The notes under the pieces: model-generated | What the model was told of the DNA's origin: nothing | Database searches by the model: none | The model's input: the letters and a program-made list of their open reading frames with translations, nothing else | Shown here: positions 3,585-34,877 of the stretch, piece after piece | Position numbering within the stretch: the stretch's first letter is position 1 | Layout: every line of letters begins with the position of its first letter | Assembly: GCA_001786365.1 (NCBI GenBank) | Contig: MFWK01000001.1 | Span: 1 to 35,039, forward strand | Direction of reading: 5' to 3' | DNA from: Candidatus Nomurabacteria bacterium RIFOXYD2_FULL_35_12 | Lineage (GTDB): Bacteria > Patescibacteriota > Minisyncoccia > Phycocordibacterales > UBA9973 | DNA: 35,039 bases | Made by a program: the position numbers and the translations under genes

Positions 3585-3593
3585 AAAAATATT

Positions 3594-3821
3594 ATGACAA
3601 CAAATAAAATAAAAATTGGAAAATATCGGCATTTTAAAAATGAAGAGAAAGAATATCAAGTTCTCGGAGTAGCAAAACATTCTGAAACAGGAGAAGAATT
3701 AGTGGTTTACAAGAAACTTTATGATGATTATTCTATGTTCGTTCGTCCACTCGTTATGTTTATGGAAACTGTAGAATTTAACGGTCAAAAAGTTCCTAGG
3801 TTTGAGTATATTGGGGAGTAA
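3594..3821 (+). CDS. DUF1653-like small protein
   Basis: 75 aa. Pattern YRHFK...[26 protein letters not shown]...VRPL.MF...V...G..VPRFEY matches my recollection of DUF1653. Confidence 0.7.
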
Positions 3822-9064: not shown

Positions 9065-10429
9065 ATGTACGTAGAATTATCAAAAATTAAAAAAGTATTT
9101 TTTGTCGGAATCGGGGGGGTTGGGATTTCGGCTATTGCTAGGCTGATGCTCTTGCAAGACAAGGATGTTTCCGGATCTGATCTTTCGGCGAGCTTGATAA
9201 CTAGCGAACTTGAAAAGCTAGGAATTCATATAGCTATAGGGCAGAGCGTAGAATTGATTCCGAAAGATGCTGAGCTCGTAGTTTATTCAACAGCAATACC
9301 AAAATACGATGCTGAATTCTTTAAGAAATTAAAAAATTTTGGTGTTAAAATAGCAAGCTATCCAGAAATGCTTGGTTTGGTGACAGATGGTAAATATACG
9401 ATTGCAGTTTCTGGAACTCATGGCAAGACGACAACGACAGCCATGGTGGCAAAAGTTTTAATTGATTCTAAACATGATCCATCTGTCATTGTGGGAAGTT
9501 TATTAAAAGATTACAAATCAAACCTAGTTGTCGGTAAGAGCAATTTCTTTGTGGTGGAAGCTTGTGAATATGAAAGAGCTTTTTTAAATATTAAACCGAA
9601 AGTTTTAATAATTACAAATATCGAGCCTGACCATTTGGATTATTATAAAAATATAAAAGACATTCAAAATGCTTTCAAACAGTTGATGTCGCAGACTGAA
9701 CATTTGATTGTTTTTAATGGACAAGATAAAAATACGAGTACGCTAGTTGCTGATTATGAAAAAAATAATTCAAAATGCGGAGTGGTGGATTACACCAAAT
9801 ATCTTGATAAAGTTCCAAAGCTTTCTGTGCCTGGCGAGCATAATCGCATGAATGCGGCAGCTGCTTTTGTAGTGGCAGATATGTTGAATATAAATGTAGC
9901 TGATACACAGCAAAGCTTGGCAGGATTTTCTGGCACTTGGCGAAGGTTAGAAAAAAAGGGGGAGACAAAAGAAGGCACAATCATTTATGACGATTACGCT
10001 CATCATCCGACAGAAATAAAAGCGAGTTTGCAGGCGCTTCGAGAGCTTTACCCCCACACCAATGATATTGGTGTGGGGGTTTACCCGGAAGGAAAGAAAA
10101 TCACGGTTCTTTTTCAGCCACACCTCTATAGTCGAACCAAAGCTTTGTTTGATGATTTTGCAAAAAGTTTTAAAGGAGCCGATAAAACACTTCTTCTTCC
10201 GATTTATTTTGCTCGAGAAGTCAAAGATGAGAGTATATCTAGCGAAAAATTAGCTGAAGCAATAAAAAAAGAAGGGGATAATGCGCAAGCATTTCCGGAC
10301 TTTGCATCAGCTGAAGAATTTGTAAAAACCTTGAATCTTGGTCCAAAAGACGTATTTGTGACGATGGGAGCTGGCGAAGCCTATAAAGTTGCCGAAAAAG
10401 TCTTTGACGTAAAATCTTTATCGATATAG
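9065..10429 (+). CDS. murC: UDP-N-acetylmuramate--L-alanine ligase
   Basis: GIGGVGISAIA, GTHGKTTTTAM, DDYAHHPTEI, FQPHLYSRT. Confidence 0.93.
   Translation: MYVELSKIKKVFFVGIGGVGISAIARLMLLQDKDVSGSDLSASLITSELEKLGIHIAIGQSVELIPKDAELVVYSTAIPKYDAEFFKKLKNFGVKIASYPEMLGLVTDGKYTIAVSGTHGKTTTTAMVAKVLIDSKHDPSVIVGSLLKDYKSNLVVGKSNFFVVEACEYERAFLNIKPKVLIITNIEPDHLDYYKNIKDIQNAFKQLMSQTEHLIVFNGQDKNTSTLVADYEKNNSKCGVVDYTKYLDKVPKLSVPGEHNRMNAAAAFVVADMLNINVADTQQSLAGFSGTWRRLEKKGETKEGTIIYDDYAHHPTEIKASLQALRELYPHTNDIGVGVYPEGKKITVLFQPHLYSRTKALFDDFAKSFKGADKTLLLPIYFAREVKDESISSEKLAEAIKKEGDNAQAFPDFASAEEFVKTLNLGPKDVFVTMGAGEAYKVAEKVFDVKSLSI
10051..10079 (+). repeat. perfect 13-bp-stem palindrome, family D, in-frame in murC
   Basis: cccccacaccaat-gat-attggtgtggggg, flanked by direct TTTACCC (10047-10053 and 10080-10086). 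Net +33 nt. Protein reads LYP-HTNDIGVGVYP-EG. Confidence 0.8.
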
Positions 10430-11403: not shown

Positions 11404-12225
11404 ATGGAAAATAAACCAGATTTTAGTATCCGCAGGCTGATTATAAAAAGTAGACATAGCAAAGAAGAATCTAGAGAAAAGAAAGTAATTTTAAAAGGTT
11501 CTTCGGATGAAAATCTAGTAGAGATTGAAGGAGATGCGGAATTAGTTCTAAAAGAATTGATGGAGGAAAATAGTGAATGGATTGAAATACAGAAAAAAAG
11601 AATATTGGCAGATTTTTCTTCATTAAATGAAGAAAAAGTTGTGAAAGTTTATAATCAGGGTCTTTTAATATTTTTAAAACAGCAATATCGTCTTTTTACA
11701 AATGATCAAAAAAGTGGACAAAGAATTTTTCCTTCTATTATGAAAAGTAGGGATTATTTAAGACAACAAATCATAGCTTATACATTTGATTTCATACAAT
11801 CTCTAAAGGCTTCAAAGAAAGAAGGTCTCACCCCAGATCAAGCATTAAAACTTGCCTATTTATCATATAGACATGATCCTGATGTATTAAAAAAATTATC
11901 TGCCAAATATCCAAAAATTGAGAAATGGATTTTAAAGCAAATATTATTGCAACATCCATCTGATTCAGAACAGTTTATTATTGATTATCTAAAAACTGTT
12001 GATGAATTGATTATAAAATATCCAGAGGTAGATTTGGGAGTTATTCATCAAGCTACACTGGGATATTTTGATCCTGTAACTTTTATTGAAAATTATTTAA
12101 AAGAGGTTGAAAGACTGTTGGGAATTTATCCGAAAGTTCACAAAAGTGTCCTTAAGTATGCAGCATTATATTTTTCTGATCCTGAAAAAGAGCAACAGTT
12201 TATTTTGAAACATTTGAAAGAGTAA
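11404..12225 (+). CDS. hypothetical protein with internal KYP-(K/E)-(I/V) helical repeats
   Basis: 273-aa ORF. Repeats: KYPKIEKWILKQ / KYPEVDLGVIHQ / IYPKVHKSVLKY. TGtTATAAT lies 8 nt before the ATG. Confidence 0.5.
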   Translation: MENKPDFSIRRLIIKSRHSKEESREKKVILKGSSDENLVEIEGDAELVLKELMEENSEWIEIQKKRILADFSSLNEEKVVKVYNQGLLIFLKQQYRLFTNDQKSGQRIFPSIMKSRDYLRQQIIAYTFDFIQSLKASKKEGLTPDQALKLAYLSYRHDPDVLKKLSAKYPKIEKWILKQILLQHPSDSEQFIIDYLKTVDELIIKYPEVDLGVIHQATLGYFDPVTFIENYLKEVERLLGIYPKVHKSVLKYAALYFSDPEKEQQFILKHLKE

Positions 12226-12264
12226 CACAAAAAAAACGGAAGCCTTGCTTCCGTTTTTTTTGTG
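12226..12264. terminator. bidirectional intrinsic terminator between convergent genes
   Basis: CACAAAAAAAACGGAAGC-CTT-GCTTCCGTTTTTTTTGTG, a perfect 18-bp palindrome with an A/T run on each side. Confidence 0.85.
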
Positions 12265-12285
12265 TTAGACAAGGTTTAACCTTGT

Positions 12286-14408: not shown

Positions 14409-16871
14409 ATGGCGAAAAAGTCTTTAGAAATAAAAGAAGAGGGAGTTAATAGAGATAAAATTCTTCCGGTTGATGTGGTGGCGGAAATGAAAGAGTCATA
14501 TTTGGCATATGCTATGTCTGTCATTACTTCGCGTGCTTTGCCTGACGTCCGAGATGGACTCAAACCTGTGCATCGTAGAATCCTTTTTGCTATGCATGAA
14601 ATGGGACTCACTGCTTCGGCGCGTTTTAGGAAATCAGCTGCAGTAGTCGGAGATGTGCTCGGAAAATATCATCCTCATGGAGACGTGGCAGTTTATGATT
14701 CAATGGTGGGCATGGCGCAAGAATTTTCTTATCGTTATCCTTTTGTTTTGGGGCAAGGAAACTTTGGCTCTATCGATGGAGACAATGCTGCGGCGATGCG
14801 TTATACCGAAGCGAAAATGTCCAAGATTAGCAGTGAGCTTTTACGTGATTTAGAAAAAGAAACAGTTGATTTCCGTCCAAACTATGACCAGACTCGCAAA
14901 GAGCCGATAGTTTTTCCATCTTCAGTGCCTGCGCTTCTTTTAAATGGAACTCTTGGTATCGCTGTCGGTATGGCGACAAATATTCCTCCGCACAATTTAG
15001 CGGAAGTATTGGATGCGACAAAACATTTGATAGAAAATGAAGACGCTACTACTGAAGACTTGATGCAATTCATCAAAGGTCCGGATTTTCCGACCGGTGG
15101 AATAGCTTATGGCTATAAAGACATGCTTCATGCTTATTCTGGAGGGCGAGGTGGCGTGGTTACTAGAGGTGAAGCAGAAATAGTAGAACAAAAAGATGGT
15201 AATTTTTCTATCATCATTACTTCCATTCCTTTCAGAGTAAATAAATCAAATTTAATTGTCGCCATTGCAGAATTAGTTCAAGAAAAGAAGCTCGAAGGTA
15301 TCAAAGGCCTTCGTGATGAGTCAACTAAAGACATTCGAATCGTTATCGATTTGAAGCCGAGCGCGCATCCGGAGAAAGTTTTGAATTATATTTACAAAAA
15401 TACCCAGCTTGAATCAAATTTCAATTTTAATATCGTGGCTCTAGTAGATGGCGTTCCGCAAACTTTATCACTCAAGTCAATCTTGGAGCAATTCGTTTTG
15501 CATAGAAAGGAAATAGTAAAGAGAAGGAGTGCTTATGATTTGAGAAGAGCCGAAGAACGCGAACACATCTTGCTCGGTCTTAAAAAAGCTCTAGACAAGA
15601 TAGACAAAGTGATTTCTGTCATTCGTGGTTCCAAAAATTCTCAGATTGCGAAGGTTAATTTAATGAAAGAGTTCAAGTTTTCTGACTTGCAAGCAACAGC
15701 TATTTTGGAAATGAAATTATCCAAGTTGGCAGGATTAGAAAGGCAAGCAGTTGAAGACGAACTTAAAGAAAAGCAGAAATTTATAGCTGAAATGAAAGAC
15801 CTTTTAGCTAGTCCAAAAAAGATACTCAAAACTATTGCCGGTGAATTGGAAGAAATTCGCGTTAAATATGCCGATGAAAGACGAACAAAAATAGTAAAAG
15901 GTGGAGTAAAAGAAATCTCAGATGAAGATTTAATGCCGGAGAAAGAGACGATGTTGGTGCTCACGGCCGGAGGATATGTAAAATGCACCGATCCGTCTGA
16001 ATATCGCGCTCAAAAAAGGGGCGGAGTCGGAGTAATTGATTTAGAAACAAAAGAAGAAGACTTTGTGACAAAACTCGTATCTGGTTCTACGCATAGCAAT
16101 TTACTATTTTTCACAAACCTCGGAAAAGTTTATCAGATGAAAATGTATGATATCCCAGAAGGACGTCGCGCGACAAAAGGAAAATCTATTATGAATTTCC
16201 TCTCGCTTTCTGGCGAAGAAAAAGTAAATTCTATTTTGGCTATGCCAAAAGACATAGACAAGACTCCGACTTCTCTCATGCTTGTGACAAAAAACGGAAC
16301 AGCTAAAAAAATGTCTTCTGAAAGTTTCAAAGATGTGCGTCGAAGTGGGATTATCGCTATTCGTTTGGATAAAGACGATCAGCTTATCTCTGCGCTTGTT
16401 ACTGAAAAGGGAAACGAAGTGATGATAGCGACAGCCGAAGGTCAATCTATCAGATTTAAAGAATCCGACATCAGGGAAATGGGTAGGACAGCCGGAGGCG
16501 TGCGCGGAATAAAACTTGGTAAGAGTGATGAAGTCATCGGTGTGGACGTTATCAAAAAAGCGACAGAAAAAGGTGCATTCTTGACGATGAGCGCAAATGG
16601 TTTCGGTAAAAAGACTGAGCTAAAAGAATACAAAGTTCAAAAACGTGGTGGTTCCGGTATAAAAACTGCAAAAGTCACTCCAAAGACGGGTAAACTTATC
16701 GTGGCAAAAGTGCTCTCGGGTGAAGAAGAGGAGTTAATAGCAATGTCCAAGAAAGGCCAAGTCATTCGAACCACACTGAAAGATATTTCATCCCTTGGCC
16801 GTCAGACTCAAGGTGTGACCATCATGCGTCTGCGCGCAGGCGACGGCATCGCCTCGCTTGCTTGTATCTAG
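14409..16871 (+). CDS. gyrA: DNA gyrase subunit A
   Basis: [21 protein letters not shown], the AAMRYTEAK active-site Tyr motif, and C-terminal beta-pinwheel repeats. Confidence 0.97.
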
Positions 16872-16890: not shown

Positions 16891-17412
16891 ATGTTTACTG
16901 ACCCGATAAAAAATTTAAGAGCCTTTGGGTTAAGAGAGGACAATGTTGTGGCGGATTTGGGCGCTGGGACTGGTTTTTATTCTGTGGCTGCGGGGCATAT
17001 AGTAGGCAGAGGAAAAGTCTATGCTATTGAAATAGTGAAAGATTTTCTAGAGACGATAAAAAACAAAGTTCATGATGCTCATTTAAAAAATGTAGAAATT
17101 CTATGGGGTGATATTGAAAAACTTGGTGGTACAAAATTGCGTGATGGCATTATAGATGCGGCTATTGCTTCAAATGTTCTTTTTCAGGTTTCAAATAAAG
17201 AGAATTTTATACAAGAAACGAAAAGAATTTTAAAACAAAAGGGGAGAGTCTTATTGATAGATTCATCAAAACCATCGATCATGGGTGCAGGTGCAATAGT
17301 CTCTAAAAACAAGGCTCGTGAGATGTTTGAAAAGAATGGCTTTATCTGGGAGAGAGACATTAATGCAGGCGAGCATCATTATGGTATGATATTAATTAAG
17401 TCATCCCAGTAG
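16891..17412 (+). CDS. class I SAM-dependent methyltransferase
   Basis: VADLGAGTGFYS motif I. Confidence 0.75.
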   Translation: MFTDPIKNLRAFGLREDNVVADLGAGTGFYSVAAGHIVGRGKVYAIEIVKDFLETIKNKVHDAHLKNVEILWGDIEKLGGTKLRDGIIDAAIASNVLFQVSNKENFIQETKRILKQKGRVLLIDSSKPSIMGAGAIVSKNKAREMFEKNGFIWERDINAGEHHYGMILIKSSQ

Positions 17413-18787: not shown

Positions 18788-19162
18788 ATGCAAAAAATTA
18801 AAAAATTCGTGATTTTACTTTCAATACTTTTTATGCCAGTTGTTTCTCTTGCAGAAAATTTTGTTTTAATACCTTGCAAGGGTGCTGATTGTGATTTTAA
18901 TGGTTTAATGGCTCTTATAAATAATGTAATTCATTTTGTGCTCTTTTATATGGCTGTTCCTATCGCCGCTATTATGTTCTTTTATGCTGGTTTTATGATG
19001 GTGACTTCAGCAGGTAGTTCGGAAAGCAAGACTAAAGCCAAAAATATTTTTTCTAGTGCTGTTTATGGGCTTGTCATTGTGGCAGCCGCTTGGCTCATTG
19101 TTAGGACTATATTATCAATCTTGGGCTATGAAGGGGCTTGGATATTTAATAATTTTAAATAA
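18788..19162 (+). CDS. TrbC/VirB2-like pilin-like protein 1
   Basis: Signal peptide, Cys pair (CKGADC), TM1, short charged loop (SAGSSESKTKAK), TM2. Confidence 0.7.
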   Translation: MQKIKKFVILLSILFMPVVSLAENFVLIPCKGADCDFNGLMALINNVIHFVLFYMAVPIAAIMFFYAGFMMVTSAGSSESKTKAKNIFSSAVYGLVIVAAAWLIVRTILSILGYEGAWIFNNFK

Positions 19163-19178
19163 GGTGTATAATATAATC

Positions 19179-19556
19179 ATGAATTTCATAAAAAAGAGTT
19201 GGTCCAAATTGGTTTTATTGTCTTATGCTTTTTTTATACCTATTATTTCCTTTGCTCAAAATGAGCAGATATCTCCAAATAATCCTTGCACTGCAGGTAA
19301 GATTTGTAACCCAATAAAAACAGATACAATCAATGACTTAATCAAAACTCTCTTAGAGGGAGTTTTGAAAGTGGGTATACCTATCGTTGCTTTGGCTATT
19401 ATTTATTGTGGTTTTCTTTTTGTGTCTGCTCAGGGTAATACAGAAAAATTAACTGAAGCAAAAAAATCTCTTACATATACTTTGATCGGCGCAGCGATAT
19501 TATTAGGTTCATGGGCTATTGCACAGCTTATATCAAACACTGTGCTCGCGCTTTGA
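19179..19556 (+). CDS. TrbC/VirB2-like pilin-like protein 2
   Basis: Same architecture (CTAGKIC; loop SAQGNTEKLTEAKK). Start moved to MNFIKK..., which gives a signal peptide. The ORF-track start 19056 overlaps the upstream gene. Confidence 0.7.
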   Translation: MNFIKKSWSKLVLLSYAFFIPIISFAQNEQISPNNPCTAGKICNPIKTDTINDLIKTLLEGVLKVGIPIVALAIIYCGFLFVSAQGNTEKLTEAKKSLTYTLIGAAILLGSWAIAQLISNTVLAL

Positions 19557-19560
19557 GCAA

Positions 19561-19596
19561 GTAAAAAGTTTATAAAGTTCGTAAAGTTATAAAGTA
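19561..19596 (+). promoter_or_regulatory. AAAGTT(T)AT tandem cassette
   Basis: gtaaaaagtttataaagttcgtaaagttataaagta then ATG 19597. Confidence 0.6.
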
Positions 19597-20370
19597 ATGA
19601 AAAAAATAAAAAAATACGCAATATCTATTTTAATAATCTTCGCACTCATTGGGGTTTTTAGTCCAGTGGTTCAGATTAGTGCAGATTCATTACAAACATT
19701 TGAGCAATCGCAGGATTACCCACCAAGTTATTATGCAAATAATCAACCTTCATCATCCACCTGTACTGCTTTAACCGGCGTGCAAAGTGTGATATGTAAA
19801 GTAAATGAAATAGTTGGTTCAATAGTCCCTGTTTTGATTGCTTTAGGATTAGTATATTTTGTCTGGGGAGTAATTCAGTATATGATAGGCACCGAAGAAG
19901 AGACTAAAAAGGGCGGAAAAGGGAAAATAATTTATGGCATTATCGGTTTGGCTGTTATTGTTGGTGTTTGGGGATTAGTAAATATTTTAAAAACTACTTT
20001 TGTTAATTCAGAAAATCTTTCTGCGCCTACTCTTTCGACTATAACTACAGTTGGGACGAGTGCTAGTTGTGATATTACTAAAACTTCAAAATTTCAAGAC
20101 GTTTTGTGTTATGTTACTAAAATCATCAATAATTCTATCATTCCTCTCATTTTTGCTCTTGCTCTAGCTATGTTTGTCTGGGGTGTGGTACAGTTTGTTT
20201 TGAATAGCGATGAAGAGGTGAAGAAAGAAAAAGGAAGGCAGTTTATGCTTTGGGGGATTATAGCTTTGACGGTGATGATTTCTGTATGGGGTTTGGTGGC
20301 AATATTAGGTGACACCTTTAAGATTAAGACCAATGTCCTTCCGCAAGTTCAACCACCTACAACACGCTAG
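19597..20370 (+). CDS. TrbC/VirB2-like pilin-like protein 3 (internally duplicated, two modules)
   Basis: Two consecutive Cys...Cys / TM / WGV(I/V)Q(Y/F) / acidic-basic loop / TM modules. Confidence 0.7.
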   Translation: MKKIKKYAISILIIFALIGVFSPVVQISADSLQTFEQSQDYPPSYYANNQPSSSTCTALTGVQSVICKVNEIVGSIVPVLIALGLVYFVWGVIQYMIGTEEETKKGGKGKIIYGIIGLAVIVGVWGLVNILKTTFVNSENLSAPTLSTITTVGTSASCDITKTSKFQDVLCYVTKIINNSIIPLIFALALAMFVWGVVQFVLNSDEEVKKEKGRQFMLWGIIALTVMISVWGLVAILGDTFKIKTNVLPQVQPPTTR

Positions 20371-23157: not shown

Positions 23158-23159
23158 GC

Positions 23160-23190
23160 AAAAAAGCTCCTTAAAATAAGGAGCTTTTTT
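23160..23190. terminator. intrinsic terminator after the 164-aa gene
   Basis: AAAAAAGCTCCTTA-aaa-TAAGGAGCTTTTTT. Confidence 0.85.
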
Positions 23191-23207
23191 GGAAATTTTA
23201 TTACTGA

Positions 23208-24369: not shown

Positions 24370-24398
24370 TGTCTGTCTCCTTTGTTGTTATTGTTGTT

Positions 24399-24450
24399 CC
24401 TGCGTGATAGTAACTTAGAAAATCAATTTTCTAAACTATTATCACACAGG
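24399..24450 (-). other. 24-bp imperfect hairpin in the 5' UTR
   Basis: Minus-strand RNA CCUGUGUGAUAAUAGUUUAGAAAA-UUGA-UUUUCUAAGUUACUAUCACGCAGG. 20 Watson-Crick pairs, 3 G-U pairs and 1 mismatch. The wobbles only work on the minus strand. Confidence 0.6.
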
Positions 24451-24496
24451 AAAGCAAGGAAAATGTAGAAAGAACAATATATCTATTACTTTTAAT

Positions 24497-24844: not shown

Positions 24845-24880
24845 GTCAGAAAAATTAAAAGCAGTTTTAATTTTTCTGAC
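24845..24880. other. perfect 16-bp hairpin between tRNA-Lys and tRNA-Leu
   Basis: GTCAGAAAAATTAAAA-gcag-TTTTAATTTTTCTGAC. Confidence 0.7.
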
Positions 24881-27575: not shown

Positions 27576-28802
27576 ATGGTTAAATCAAACATGAATTTTT
27601 CAAAAAAACCTCGGAAAATATATATGGATTATGCTTCTAGCGCAGAAGCGAACCCTAGTTCTATACATTCTTTTGGGGTGAAAGCAAAAGCTGAATTACA
27701 AAATGCCCGTAAGGACGTGGCGAAAGTTTTAAATGCTCATATGGATGAAATAATCTTTACGAGCGGGGGAACGGAGAGTAATAATCTTGCAATACAGGGA
27801 GTTTTAAGAGCGGTTAAGGAAAAACTTCCGCATATAATAACAACGAACATAGAACATCCTTCAGTCCTTGAAACTTTTAAGCTTATGGAAAAAAGAGAGT
27901 TGGCGGAGATTTCTATCGTGCCAGTTGAAATAAACGGAATAGTAGATCCTAAAAAAATAAAAAAAGAAATAAAAAAAAATACAGTGTTGGTGTCTGTGAT
28001 GTATGTAAATAATGAAATCGGTACAATCCAGCCAATTCGGGAGATAGCAAAAGAAATTCGGCATTGGAAGAAAAAAAGGTCGCGCTCCCAAGTCTCTAAA
28101 ACTTCACCTTTTCCTGTTTTTCACACTGATGCAGTACAGGCGGTAAATTATTTAGATTTGAATGTAGAGGCATTGGGCGTAGATTTACTTTCATTATCCG
28201 GTTCAAAAATAGAAGGGGCAGGTAGGGTGGGGGTTCTTTATAAAAGGCGCGGAACACAGATTGAAAATATTTTTGGCGGAGGAGGTCAGGAATTTGGATT
28301 GCGTCCTGGGACAGAAAATCTACCGGAAATTATAAAATTTTCTGAAGCATTGGAGTTAGTTCAAAAAATTAAAGAAAAAGAAGTAAAAAGGTTAACAAAA
28401 CTTCGAGATTATTTTATTGCTAAATTGTCAAAGATGCCCTTTGACATTAAATTAAATGGTGATTTGGAAAATAGATTACCAAATAATGTAAACATTTCTA
28501 TTCCAAATATTCCGAGCGATCTTTTGGTTATAGAATTATCTGCTAGGGGAATAATGGCTTCTGAAAAAAGCGCTTGCGAGTCAGGAGACGGAAAAGCTTC
28601 ATATGTCATAAAAGCAATTCGTCCTGAAATAAAACCTGCCCGCAATGCTTTCAGCATAGCTGATGCAGGCGGGGAAAATGATGGCTCTTTGCGATTTTCT
28701 ATGGGCAGGCAAACGACAAAAAAAGATATTGATTATACTTTAAAATCTCTGTCTAAAATTTTGACTAAATTAAAAAAATGGTATACCCCTACACCTATTT
28801 AG
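27576..28802 (+). CDS. cysteine desulfurase (NifS/IscS-like, class V aminotransferase)
   Basis: FTSGGTESNN, HTDAVQA, SGSK (PLP Lys), SACESG active-site loop, LRFSMG. The start could be the internal MNFSKK. Confidence 0.85.
   Translation: MVKSNMNFSKKPRKIYMDYASSAEANPSSIHSFGVKAKAELQNARKDVAKVLNAHMDEIIFTSGGTESNNLAIQGVLRAVKEKLPHIITTNIEHPSVLETFKLMEKRELAEISIVPVEINGIVDPKKIKKEIKKNTVLVSVMYVNNEIGTIQPIREIAKEIRHWKKKRSRSQVSKTSPFPVFHTDAVQAVNYLDLNVEALGVDLLSLSGSKIEGAGRVGVLYKRRGTQIENIFGGGGQEFGLRPGTENLPEIIKFSEALELVQKIKEKEVKRLTKLRDYFIAKLSKMPFDIKLNGDLENRLPNNVNISIPNIPSDLLVIELSARGIMASEKSACESGDGKASYVIKAIRPEIKPARNAFSIADAGGENDGSLRFSMGRQTTKKDIDYTLKSLSKILTKLKKWYTPTPI
28632..28675 (+). repeat. family B copy 2, in-frame in the cysteine desulfurase gene
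   Basis: aaacctgcccgcaatgctttcagcatagctgatgcaggcgggga. Translated KPARNAFSIADAGG. Differs from the secA copy only in the 3-nt loop. Confidence 0.8.
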
Positions 28803-28853
28803 TTTTTTTATTTTATATATTTTTTTTGACTAAAAATAGGTGTGGGGGTATAC
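28781..28853. repeat. 20-bp inverted repeat related to family D, spanning a gene end and the next promoter
   Basis: gtatacccctacacctattt, 33-nt AT spacer, aaataggtgtgggggtatac (19/20). The left arm encodes the last codons plus the stop of the desulfurase. The right arm lies between -35 and -10 of the next gene. Confidence 0.75.
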
Positions 28854-28854
28854 T
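28826..28854 (+). promoter_or_regulatory. promoter giving a leaderless-type transcript for 28861 gene
   Basis: TTGACT (28826-31), 17-nt spacer, TATACT (28849-54), 6 nt, ATG 28861. No SD. Confidence 0.55.
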
Positions 28855-28860
28855 TGATTC

Positions 28861-29661
28861 ATGGATATCAAAGATTTAAATAAAGCACAGCTTATATTGC
28901 TCGCAGTTCTCCTTTCTTTTGTCACTTCTATCGTGACGGGTATAACGACTGTGACTTTAATGCAACAAGCTCCAGCATCTTTTACTGTTCCGGTTAATCG
29001 AGTTATCAGACAAACAGTTGAGAAAATTCAACAAGTAGAAGGCAAGACCACTGTGCAAACAGTAATAGTTAAAGAAGAAGATTTGGTGGTGGATGCTTTG
29101 GCAAAAAATAAATCAGCTGTTTTTTTTGTTAGCAAAGAAATTCTTGGTTTAGATGGCCTTCCGATAGAGGTTTCAGTTGGTAAAGGTTTTGCTGTTTCTT
29201 CCGATGGCATAGTCGTTGTTGATGGCGCTTCTGTATTCGATAAGGGAATTTATTTTGTAAAAAATGATAGTGGAAAGTTTAAAGCAGAATTTGTTTCAAT
29301 AGACAATATAGGTTTTGCTTTTTTAAAGATAGGTGCTCCGCTTGATGAAAAAGATAAAGTTAGCTTTACAGTACCTAATTTTGGAGATTTAGAAAAGATA
29401 AAAATTGGACAAAAGATTTTAATTTCAGGTAATACGATATCTTCGTTTATTTTTGATGGAAATAAAGATATAAATATTAGTGTTGCAAAATCAAATAGCG
29501 GATCAATAGTTCTAAACTTAGACGGAGATGTTTTAGGTATGGTTTTGTCTGAAGAGAGTTCACCTTTTGTTTCGATTGATGTTATAGTCAATGCTTTGAA
29601 TGTTATAAATGGAGAAAATACTTTGCCAGCTACTCCTGTTCTTGCGCCTATCACACAATAA
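28861..29661 (+). CDS. membrane-anchored trypsin-like (HtrA-like) domain protein, catalytic His not evident
   Basis: N-terminal TM. GKGFAVSSDGIVVV and KSNSGSIVLNLDGDVLGMV resemble the S1C protease GSGF...TN.HV / GNSGGPL motifs, but the His motif is absent. Confidence 0.45.
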   Translation: MDIKDLNKAQLILLAVLLSFVTSIVTGITTVTLMQQAPASFTVPVNRVIRQTVEKIQQVEGKTTVQTVIVKEEDLVVDALAKNKSAVFFVSKEILGLDGLPIEVSVGKGFAVSSDGIVVVDGASVFDKGIYFVKNDSGKFKAEFVSIDNIGFAFLKIGAPLDEKDKVSFTVPNFGDLEKIKIGQKILISGNTISSFIFDGNKDINISVAKSNSGSIVLNLDGDVLGMVLSEESSPFVSIDVIVNALNVINGENTLPATPVLAPITQ

Positions 29662-33011: not shown

Positions 33012-34877
33012 ATGGAAATTAGAAATATAGCTATTATAGCTCACGTGGACCATGGGAAGACTACCTTGACCGATGCTTTGATGAAGCAAAATGGTGGGCT
33101 TCAAGATGAGGGAGTCTCAATGGATTCAAATGCTTTGGAAAAAGAGCGTGGTATTACTATTTACTCAAAAAATACTTCCATAAATTACAAAGACACTAAA
33201 ATAAACATTGTAGATACGCCCGGACACGCGGATTTCGGCAGCGAGGTGGAACGTGTTTTGCGCGCAGTAGATTGCGTGCTTTTGCTCGTGGATGCAGTCG
33301 AAGGCCCAATGCCTCAAACCAGGTTCGTTTTAAAAAAGTCTTTGGAGTTAGGGCAAAAGCCAATTGTGGTTATAAATAAAATAGATAAACCTGCTTCTGA
33401 TCCACATAGAGTTCATGAAGAAATTTTGAACTTATTTTTTGAATTAGGAGCTTCTGAAGAGCAAGCGAATTTTGAAACTATTTATGCTATTGGACGACAA
33501 GGGGTAGCTTTTAAAAAATTAGGTGATGATTCAAAAGATTTGTCTCCTCTTTTAGATTTAATTTTAGAAAAAGTTCCAGACGCAAGTAAGTGTCAAGGAC
33601 TGTCCTTGACAAGTATGTCAAAGACCGTCTTTGACACTAAGAAAATGTCTGCGCAAGTTTTCAATCTTGGTTATGATAATTTTCTAGGCAGAATGGCAGT
33701 AGCTAGAATTTATTCCGGTACAATTTTTTCCGGAAGTAATATTTTTATAAAAGGAGAGAGGGAAATACGCAGTGGCAAAGTAACAAAACTTTTTACTTTT
33801 GAAGGAATAAACAGAAAAGAAGTGGAAAATGCGACTTCTGGAGACATAGTTCTCTTGGCTGGAATTCCAGACATATATATAGGTGAGACATTATGTGAAG
33901 ACGAGAGCGTAGAACCTTTGCCTCACATTGCTATTGATGAGCCGACTCTTTCTCTTAACTTTTTAGTAAATGATTCTCCATTTGCCGGCAAAGAAGGAAA
34001 GTTTGTTACGTCCAGACAAATCAAAGAAAGACTAGAAAAGGAGTTAGAGATAAACGTCGGACTAAAAGTTGATTTTACTCCGGATCAGGGTGATAAAAAG
34101 TCAGGTCCGAGTTTCTTTAAAGTTTATGGCCGTGGAGAACTGCACATAGCGATACTTTTGGAATATATGCGCCGAGAGGGATTTGAAATGCAAGTCTCTC
34201 AACCGGAAGTTATCATAAAAGAAAAAGATGGAGTGAGTACAGAGCCATATGAAGAGCTGGTTATTGATGTTCCTATGGAGTCTTCTGGTGGAGTTATAGA
34301 AAAGATAGGAAAAAGACGAGGAATAATGAAAGATATGATGGAAAAAGAGGGTATAGCTAGGATTACTTTTGACATACCGACTCGTGGACTTTTGGGTTAT
34401 CGTGGTGAATTTATTATAGATACAAAAGGCGAAGGCATTATGTCTTCTAGAGTCACAGGATTTAGAGAATATGCTGGAGAAATAAAAAGACGAGAGTATG
34501 GTGCGATGACTTCTATGATAAATGGCAAGGCAGTTGCCTTTGCGCTTGCAAATTTACAGGAACGTGGTATACTTTATGTAAGTCACGGTACTGAAGTTTA
34601 TGAAGGTATGGTGGTGGGTAATGTTTTGAAGGGTGATGATATGTCAGTGAACCCTACAAAAGGAAAACAGCTTACCAACATGCGTGCTTCTGGAACTGAT
34701 GAGGCCATAGTTTTAAATCCTGTATTTTCTTTGAATATTGAAAGAGGTTTGGAAGTGATGAATGAAGATGAGTATTTGGAAATCACTCCAAAATCAGTTA
34801 GACTTAGAAAGAAATATCTAACTGACCTTGATAGGAAAAAGCATTTCGCTGCACAAATTGATAAAGAAAAAAAATAA
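33012..34877 (+). CDS. typA: translational GTPase TypA/BipA
   Basis: [30 protein letters not shown]-like domains with the BipA-type C-terminus. Confidence 0.93.
33591..33636 (+). repeat. tandem pair of perfect 10-bp-arm palindromes, family E, in-frame in typA
   Basis: TGTCAAGGAC-t-GTCCTTGACA, agta, TGTCAAAGAC-c-GTCTTTGACA. Translated (K)[16 protein letters not shown]. Confidence 0.75.

Follow-up and report, generated by a model that had tools for sequence, protein, structure and literature searches.

Several systems of short palindromic or hairpin-bearing DNA have been described in bacteria. REPs are extragenic, stand at a fixed flanking tetranucleotide, do not duplicate the target and enclose their RAYT gene. 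IS200/IS605 insertion sequences (ISs) insert 3′ of one fixed target without duplication, the target of IS608 being TTAC. The cyanobacterial SDRs, reportedly described by Elhai et al. in 2008 (Genome Res), are said to be repeats of 21–27 nt with conserved hairpins, found as nested insertions inside HIP1 octamers, heptamer repeats or minitransposons; they were reportedly proposed as the smallest mobile elements, with movement through RNA suggested. Larger units are known as well. [quoted passage not shown] Here we analyse a stretch of 35,039 nt, called the window (GenBank MFWK01000001.1, positions 1 to 35,039), from the groundwater genome of a Candidatus Nomurabacteria member of the Patescibacteria, also called the Candidate Phyla Radiation (CPR). 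Its murC gene contains a 29-nt palindrome, and a longer relative ends a cysteine desulfurase gene. We consider it quite probable that the murC palindrome is a copy of a non-autonomous, ultra-short palindromic mobile element, MITE- or REP-like, that is common in Patescibacteria.

The palindrome, CCCCCACACCAAT-GAT-ATTGGTGTGGGGG at 10051–10079, lies inside an open reading frame (ORF) of 454 codons. The top match of its product in the Protein Data Bank (PDB) is the MurC structure 9ir5 (E = 6e-81), whose alignment leaves 12 residues unmatched in a gap where the insertion lies. The features of this locus are as follows.

9065..10429, + strand: murC (UDP-N-acetylmuramate--L-alanine ligase), host gene of the first element (Pfam Mur_ligase / Mur_ligase_M / Mur_ligase_C; PDB match)
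10047..10050, no strand: left copy of the putative 4-nt target-site duplication, TTTA (family-wide 4-nt repeat; TTTA in orthologue L005; metagenome depth edge 10046/10047)
10051..10079, no strand: 29-nt palindromic element, CCCCCACACC AAT GAT ATT GGTGTGGGGG (palindrome, fold, absence in orthologues, metagenome copies)
10080..10083, no strand: right copy of the putative duplication, TTTA (empty site GAG CTT TAC CCG AAG in L007; depth edge 10083/10084)

The perfect palindrome of the original prediction was confirmed; its arms are 100% complementary around a 3-nt loop, and the stem reaches 14 bp when the pair A10050/T10080 is counted. As single-stranded DNA it folds with -16.5 kcal/mol, compared with -5.6 ± 2.0 kcal/mol for shuffled sequences (z = -5.6; 0 of 200 shuffles equal it). 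With at most one mismatch, GGTGTGGGGG occurs six times in the window against an expectation of 0.47, a count that none of 100 shuffles reaches. Element and duplication together (29 nt + 4 nt = 33 nt) are in frame and stop-free in murC, which reads ...LRELYP-HTNDIGVGVYP-EGKKITVLFQPH across them, with PHTNDIGVGVY (residues 330–340) as the 11 extra residues. Scans reported no terminator-like site at either this or the desulfurase element, the murC copy being mid-gene and without a T-run. At the gathering score, Rfam 15 gave no match at either element and matched only tRNAs in the window, and no metatranscriptome holding the murC locus was found.

A comparison with orthologues indicates that the 33 nt are an insertion. 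In a set of 120 MurC homologues (62–100% identical), the spacing from HHPTE to FQPH is 22 residues in 87, versus 32 in the window. The closest relative, L007 (P0002, 83% identity), has an empty site with matching flanks, reading GAG CTT TAC CCG AAG GGA where the window reads GAG CTT TAC (33 nt) CCG GAA GGA, and all solved MurC proteins are without the insert. The 11-codon insertion proposed earlier is thus borne out around the FQPH motif, where relatives by no means all carry the 11 residues. In the AlphaFold model of the window protein, whose mean pLDDT (predicted local distance difference test) is 89.8, residues 331–340 have a pLDDT of 58, and the inserted residues are modelled as a loop between helix 315–328, ending ...RELY, and strand 345–351 (KITVLFQPH). 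With this low confidence and position, the 11 added residues are read as a presumably tolerated surface loop.

The insert is flanked by TTTACCC at 10047–10053 and again at 10080–10086, and this 7-nt repeat had been proposed as a possible target-site duplication. The duplication itself holds up, its length of 7 nt does not. The repeat around other family members is exactly 4 nt, and in the L005 orthologue, which has the identical 29 nt, the base after TTTA is C on the left side and T on the right. Because of these two observations we take the duplication in murC to be TTTA, and the extra CCC would be the original Pro codon (CCG at 10084), which happens to match the C-run of the element. The window, L005 and L131 share the 29 nt without a single difference, though their flanks differ by 20–25%, which implies DNA-level selection, conversion from other copies, or repeated renewal.

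The inverted repeat at 28781–28853 had been named as a larger relative of the murC palindrome, and it does have the same termini. Its surroundings are listed below.

27576..28802, + strand: cysteine desulfurase (Pfam Aminotran_5), last four codons (PTPI) and stop from the second element
28782..28785, no strand: left copy of the putative target-site duplication of the second element, TATA (empty site in L183; TATA flanks frequent in the family)
28786..28848, no strand: 63-nt family member, CCCCTACACCTATTT, 33-nt AT-rich interior, AAATAGGTGTGGGGG (inverted repeat, DNA fold)
28849..28852, no strand: right copy of the putative duplication, TATA (window sequence; empty site in L183)
28826..28854, + strand: promoter-like site TTGACT-17-TATACT (consensus scan only, 10/12)
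28861..29661, + strand: downstream gene with a trypsin-like peptidase domain (Pfam Trypsin_2)

The arms GTATACCCCTACACCTATTT (28781–28800) and AAATAGGTGTGGGGGTATAC (28834–28853) are 20 nt long, 95% complementary and separated by 33 nt; the DNA fold has -17 kcal/mol (z = -6.8), and the desulfurase ORF ends within the repeat, at 28802. The termini of the 63-nt copy are CCCCTACACC and GGTGTGGGGG, with one C>T change in the left one, and its inner arms are TATTT/AAATA. G28781 and C28853 complete a GTATAC target around the TATA duplications, and members sharing both the inner arms and the TATA flanks are found in L022, L061 and L092. The orthologous locus L183 has the empty site GTGGTATACTTAA, which reads AAG TGG TAT ACT TAA att ATG, so the ATG of the next gene stands 3 nt past the desulfurase stop; in the window, the insertion has put the peptidase gene 67 nt away from that stop. 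The desulfurase C-terminus is ...KKWY(N/T/D/S) in nearly all of the 54 closest homologues examined outside the window's near-identical group, versus ...KKWYTPTPI in the window. Taken together, the homologue ends and the empty site of L183 argue that the element supplies PTPI and the stop of the desulfurase, as the original prediction had it, and displaces the peptidase gene. The same WY(T) end has been struck in other lineages (P0150, WYIPTPA; P0138/P0151, WYTPASIY; P0167, WYTPTPIFT).

Does the second element also provide a promoter, as its proposed overlap with the promoter spacer of the next gene would suggest? In TTGACT-17-TATACT the -35 hexamer lies within the element and the -10 hexamer is made by the duplication and its flank. 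A 69%-identical desulfurase orthologue (P0150) has at L184:2650–2720 a decayed copy at the same GTATA-C site as window 28782–28860, whose arms no longer pair and which keeps TTGACT-17-TATAGT. The match of 10/12 in the window is itself not above chance, shuffles giving 1.4 such sites. For this reason, exaptation of the second insert as promoter of the peptidase gene is hinted at and is only a lead.

The family was scanned with the pattern CCCCCACACC-N5-35-GGTGTGGGGG in one genome per GTDB species, which gave at least 120 loci, and its anatomy was quantified on 91 low-GC copies. A copy is 25–65 nt long, with a peak at 28–29 nt, and almost entirely hairpin: the 10-nt termini and 3–6 more paired bases form terminal inverted repeats (TIRs), the outer 10–13 nt are conserved, the centre varies in length, and 13 copies are complete palindromes without a loop. 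Positions 11–13 pair in 70 of the 91 copies (permutation mean 13.5, maximum 23), with 13 different triplets (AAT, AAA, TAT, TAA, TTT, AAC and others). These triplets vary and still pair; therefore, the stem co-varies. Identical short forms recur at unrelated loci of different genomes, the centres AAAATCTTT, TATGCATA and AATGCATT at five, four and three loci, respectively. A single unpaired motif is almost never seen, and unpaired arms are decayed pairs.

Other copies do carry flanking duplications. A direct repeat of exactly 4 nt flanks 33 of the 91 copies (permutation mean 7.2, maximum 17), whereas offset controls give 0–3. Its sequence is TAAA or TTTA in 17 cases, TATA in 7, TTAA, TGAA, CAAG and TTTG (including a 5-nt CTTTG) in 2 each, and ATCG (a 5-nt case, CATCG), AATT and TTGA in 1 each. 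TAAA goes with TAAA, and TTTA with TTTA, rather than crosswise (Fisher p = 0.0007), and the repeat often has G before or C after it, as in GTATA-element-TATAC and TTTA-element-TTTAC. These flanks mark the 4-nt repeat as a target-site duplication and not as a fixed flanking motif. A guide-like coupling of the flanking 4-mer to the inner stem, following the IS200/IS605 logic, was rejected, the same inner sequence being found with TAAA, TTTA or TATA flanks.

Many copies lie in genes. In-frame copies were assigned by Pfam to a histidine kinase, PolX, a P-type ATPase, DNA polymerase I (PolA), an M16 peptidase, QueA, a DegT aminotransferase and HolA. In-gene copies are usually translated as ...PHT-x-GVGV..., and the 10-mers CCCCCACACC and GGTGTGGGGG hold no stop codon in any frame on either strand. 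The copy length plus 4 is divisible by 3 in 43 of the 91 copies (p = 0.007) and in 9 of 11 copies deep within ORFs, an excess that is expected if only in-frame insertions survive in genes.

Among the matches listed, ~65 loci come from Patescibacteria, with every class represented (Nomura-, Wolfe-, Yonath-, Campbell-, Falkow-, Uhr-, Moran-, Doudna- and Berkelbacteria, Saccharibacteria and others), a separate subfamily occurs in Omnitrophota and Planctomycetes, and a minority are GC-rich hairpins from actinobacteria or Pseudomonas that resemble ordinary terminators. The low-GC loci hold ~0.023 further copies per kb (~1 per 43 kb) beyond the copy by which each was ascertained, and shuffled sequence holds none; one 8-kb tile, L069, has four copies. 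On contigs of four groundwater metagenomes, the depth over the murC region rises from ~6 to ~290 exactly over 10047–10083, with unrelated flanks on both sides. Therefore, TTTA + 29 nt + TTTA is highly repeated in that groundwater community, and the 28–29-nt form dominates this spike.

Some matches belong elsewhere. Fifty matches on viral contigs (L133–L182, IMG/VR) were set aside as unrelated; almost all are GC-rich hairpins or AAAAAAGG-hairpin-CCTTTTTT terminators from Pseudomonas-type phages, the latter formed by the same two 10-mers. Such terminators also stand in the Pseudomonas genomes L111 and L127, a coincidental match unrelated to the CPR family. In a Planctomycetales metagenome-assembled genome, CCCCCACACC-AATTGC...GCAATT-GGTGTGGGGG (L120:3225–3277) is helix P3 of RNase P RNA (Rfam RF00010, 181.7 bits). 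Two origins would account for this: replacement or extension of P3 by the element, or descent of the subfamily from a P3-like hairpin. The hairpin of Omnitrophota and Planctomycetes sits mid-way in a ~190-nt repeated unit with outer inverted repeats AATGAGC.../...GCTCATT and two further hairpins (L116:1793–2003 and 3586–3796; L026:7194–7404; L038, L117, L019, L101, L054, L097), for which a composite MITE and a structured RNA gene are both conceivable.

How has the murC site come to be filled in several lineages? In a neighbour-joining tree of the 120 MurC proteins with the variable segment removed, the filled alleles (P0001, P0004, P0009, P0014, P0023, P0026, P0030, P0033 and P0045) are scattered, each with empty sister alleles. 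P0009 has two different copies in tandem, with inner arms TTTCAC-CTT-GTGAAA and AAT-GAT-ATT, each followed by TTTACCC, and P0045 has a third subtype in murC. Independent insertions thus contribute to the scattered filling. A further contribution is seen in the filled allele P0030 and the empty allele P0095, which differ by 60 substitutions in 260 positions inside columns 798–1090 and by 16 in 991 outside (p = 2e-29). The divergent tract of ~290 nt spans the insertion site, and elsewhere the two are ~98% identical. From this pattern, at least part of the recurrence at the murC site is transfer by homologous recombination and not only repeated insertion; the outgroup P0026 is too distant to show which of the two alleles received the foreign tract. 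P0030 (L131) and P0095 (L132:10652–10678) also differ by a 27-nt in-frame indel (ASPVGSGPM) in a variable linker of the central domain.

A gene that could move the element was sought around the copies. When 1051 ORFs lying up to 2.5 kb from copies were compared all against all by BLAST, no gene family appeared in more than five loci, and no Y1 gene was found near ~120 copies. Within the loci, arm pairs 80–5000 nt apart with a 4-nt repeat comprise only one member of 134 nt and two pairs whose arms belong to separate small copies. The 134-nt member (L102), the longest found, is MITE-like: its inverted repeats are 20 nt long, its interior is not palindromic and its duplication is TTTC. An apparent 1.07-kb pair in L053 was discarded as a chance match inside a protease gene. 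The one transposase seen in the vicinity in relatives is a conserved Y1_Tnp protein of 208–220 residues (PF01797, E = 5e-12 to 1e-10), encoded in L005, L006 and L007 and named RayT by the Joint Genome Institute (JGI). What flanks its gene is another palindrome, TGTCAAAG-N5-CTTTGACA, rather than CCCCCACACC arms; with no Y1 gene near the copies either, the RAYT of these relatives was rejected as the mover, a rejection that does not extend to a different, unseen Y1 clade. The TGTCAAAG/CTTTGACA family brackets the 208-residue RAYT-like gene between gyrA and a methyltransferase gene (L005:16737–18041, L007:16847–17506). That gene is absent at this place in the window, where gyrA ends at 16871 and the methyltransferase gene starts at 16891, with 19 nt between them, and the palindrome is present as a REPIN-like doublet at 33589–33638.

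On the reading that we favour, the element inserts at T-W-W-A-type sites, often (G)TWWA(C), and leaves a 4-nt target-site duplication. The murC copy is tolerated by the enzyme as an 11-residue loop, and the copy at 28786–28848 struck GTATAC at the last desulfurase codons, giving the protein a new C-terminus and stop. Once an element is resident, lineages swap the filled or empty state by homologous recombination over a few hundred bases. The moving enzyme would be supplied in trans, recognise the conserved 10-nt ends or the hairpin, and make or use a 4-nt staggered break in the target. As to its class, the 4-nt duplication, which varies in sequence and lies at a roughly symmetric target, points to a staggered duplex cut, as made by DDE transposases, and a DDE-type enzyme is the leading candidate at somewhat less than an even chance. 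The small size of the unit (25–29 nt), its almost complete hairpin and the co-variation in the stem point to single-stranded hairpin recognition as by HUH/Y1 enzymes, and this route is a minor candidate, slightly less probable than something outside both classes.

Several observations weigh against a mobile element of this kind. No perfect 4-nt repeat flanks 58 of the 91 copies, some pattern matches are plain terminator hairpins, and some flanks are inverted (TTCA/TGAA). Neither a transposase nor any other gene stands consistently beside the copies, and no full-length element with these termini was found in ~130 loci of 2–21 kb, no search being possible for arms more than 600 nt apart beyond the loci. 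No species variant without the 33 nt was found among the contigs of the four groundwater runs, and contigs cannot show rare variants. A duplex of 25–29 bp lacks the length and flexibility that a conventional paired-end DDE complex needs; the hairpin-using HUH transposases that we know of leave no target duplication, and we are aware of no mechanism that fits both the size and the duplication. A more radical proposal is that the 25–29-nt hairpin itself transposes as a single strand, by means of a Patescibacteria-wide enzyme that couples hairpin recognition to a 4-nt staggered break, and spreads in a homing-like manner, co-converting a few hundred flanking bases. To our knowledge, that combination occurs in no described transposase family, and we put it forward as a speculative and rather doubtful possibility. 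If the hairpin itself is the transposing unit, it would be among the smallest mobile DNAs known.

Explanations other than a MITE- or REP-like mobile element must account for the same data. A REP/REPIN-type element moved as a single-stranded hairpin by the RAYT (Y1 tyrosine transposase) of related genomes would agree with the REP-like size, the almost pure hairpin, the co-varying stem and the presence of the Y1_Tnp protein in L005–L007. However, that RAYT gene has its own palindrome, the copies have no Y1 neighbour and many of them are within genes, and REP/RAYT and IS200/IS605 leave no duplication and use a fixed tetranucleotide, whereas the 4-nt repeat here varies between copies; we consider this explanation unlikely. 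It could also be imagined that the insertion is ancient, vertically inherited and functional, serving MurC as a loop or acting as a hairpin of DNA or RNA in regulation or protein binding, and was lost elsewhere. Identity of the 29 nt amid flanks differing by 20–25% indicates DNA-level constraint or renewal, and the desulfurase copy keeps its promoter-like hexamers after arm decay. On the other hand, filled alleles are scattered over the MurC tree with empty sisters each time, hundreds of unrelated loci and genes contain this very unit, with a 4-nt repeat particular to each, the model places the inserted residues in a loop of low confidence, and most MurC proteins, including all solved ones, do without them, so that a functional origin appears quite improbable.

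The small palindromes could instead be immobile remnants of larger TIR elements (MITEs or ISs) after hairpin-stimulated deletion of the interior, the so-called nearly precise excision. The existence of longer members, namely the 134-nt one with 20-nt TIRs and the 63-nt window copy with its AT-rich interior, and the conservation of the outer 10–13 nt around a centre of variable length would be in keeping with this. Against it stand the identical short forms at unrelated loci of different genomes and the dominance of the 28–29-nt form in the metagenome depth spike; moreover, a large precursor must first have sat in essential genes such as murC. We regard this origin as very improbable. To a non-transposing motif of DNA-uptake or terminator type, accumulating by recombination or convergence, we give almost no credence: the filled or empty state does move by homologous recombination, and the same 10-mers do form plain terminators in Pseudomonas-type phages and some high-GC genomes, but the motif is almost never single and its unpaired arms are decayed pairs, it comes in as a whole block that duplicates 4 nt, the copy in murC is in the middle of the gene and has no T-run, and the 10-mer is common to CPR classes, unlike lineage-specific uptake sequences.

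CPR genomes, of ~1 Mb, are thought to carry little mobile DNA. The hairpin family appears to be common across the whole CPR radiation and lies below the size cut-offs expected of MITE and IS finders; full-text literature searches gave no description of the motif in a relevant context, nor of MITEs or palindromic insertions in Patescibacteria. In-frame elements in essential genes (murC, polA, holA, P-type ATPase) add small peptide loops to core proteins, and at least one element has rewritten the C-terminus and stop of a gene and perhaps supplied a promoter. The small indels that the family produces could confuse orthology and alignment work on CPR genomes, while the family would be useful as a marker of recombination between CPR lineages. 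Finding the mover could define a new transposition mechanism or show the reach of known transposases.

Some further features were seen in the window and its relatives. At L005:7570–10014 and L006:4849–7293, a single protein of 814 residues joins MurL_N, epimerase and Mur-ligase parts; in the window this place is taken by MurD and, after it, a small hydrolase-like gene. A run of small T4SS-pilin/TrbC-like genes after an SBP_bac_1 gene (window 18788–20370) is conserved in arrangement in all relatives fetched. Other long inverted repeats lie at 876–959, 525–613, 12223–12267, 24397–24452, 24845–24880 and 23159–23191, with arms of 15–30 nt that are 83–100% complementary; some fall where no ORF of at least 80 codons is listed, and they probably include terminators and further repeat families.

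Compared with known systems, the family shares with MITEs the terminal inverted repeats, a target-site duplication of fixed length and varying sequence, the lack of coding capacity, the dispersed copies and the occasional in-frame residence. It differs from them in that its members, at 25–65 nt far shorter than the ~100–235 nt cited above, are near-perfect hairpins, with a modal 28–29-nt form that has no interior (only members of the 63-nt window and 134-nt L102 type have one), in that no parent IS with the same ends was found among the loci searched, and in that the 10-nt termini are conserved across whole Patescibacteria classes; the usual size range of roughly 50–500 bp, with an interior unrelated to the TIRs, does not describe it. 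The nearest precedent in size, reportedly, is the SDRs, mobile-looking repeats of <30 nt with a hairpin, from another phylum and with another sequence, and the present family likewise ranks with the smallest mobile-looking elements described; we know of no 4-nt duplication or in-frame core-gene residence for them. IS200/IS605-derived palindrome-associated elements (PATEs) resemble the family in their hairpin ends and in insertion by T-rich tetra- or pentanucleotides (TTTAC and TATAC here), but the flanks here are TAAA, TATA, TTAA, CAAG, CATCG and others, each of them duplicated. The size of 20–40 nt, a hairpin with compensatory changes and a high copy number are shared with REPs and REPINs (Bertels & Rainey 2011, PMC3116915), and a REP/RAYT system of another sequence family coexists in related genomes; in contrast, the copies here are often intragenic (murC and at least eight other Pfam-annotated genes), have a variable duplicated 4-mer and are not at the RAYT gene. 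Intrinsic terminators are GC-rich hairpins with a T-run at a gene end, and the scans reported no such site at the window elements; DNA uptake sequences differ in being mostly single motifs that arise by substitution, whereas the arms here are paired and arrive as a block. Like RPEs, finally, the family is palindromic selfish DNA inserted in frame and translated in housekeeping genes, and unlike them it is 3–5 times shorter, unrelated in sequence, found in CPR and a few other phyla, and marked by a clear 4-nt duplication.

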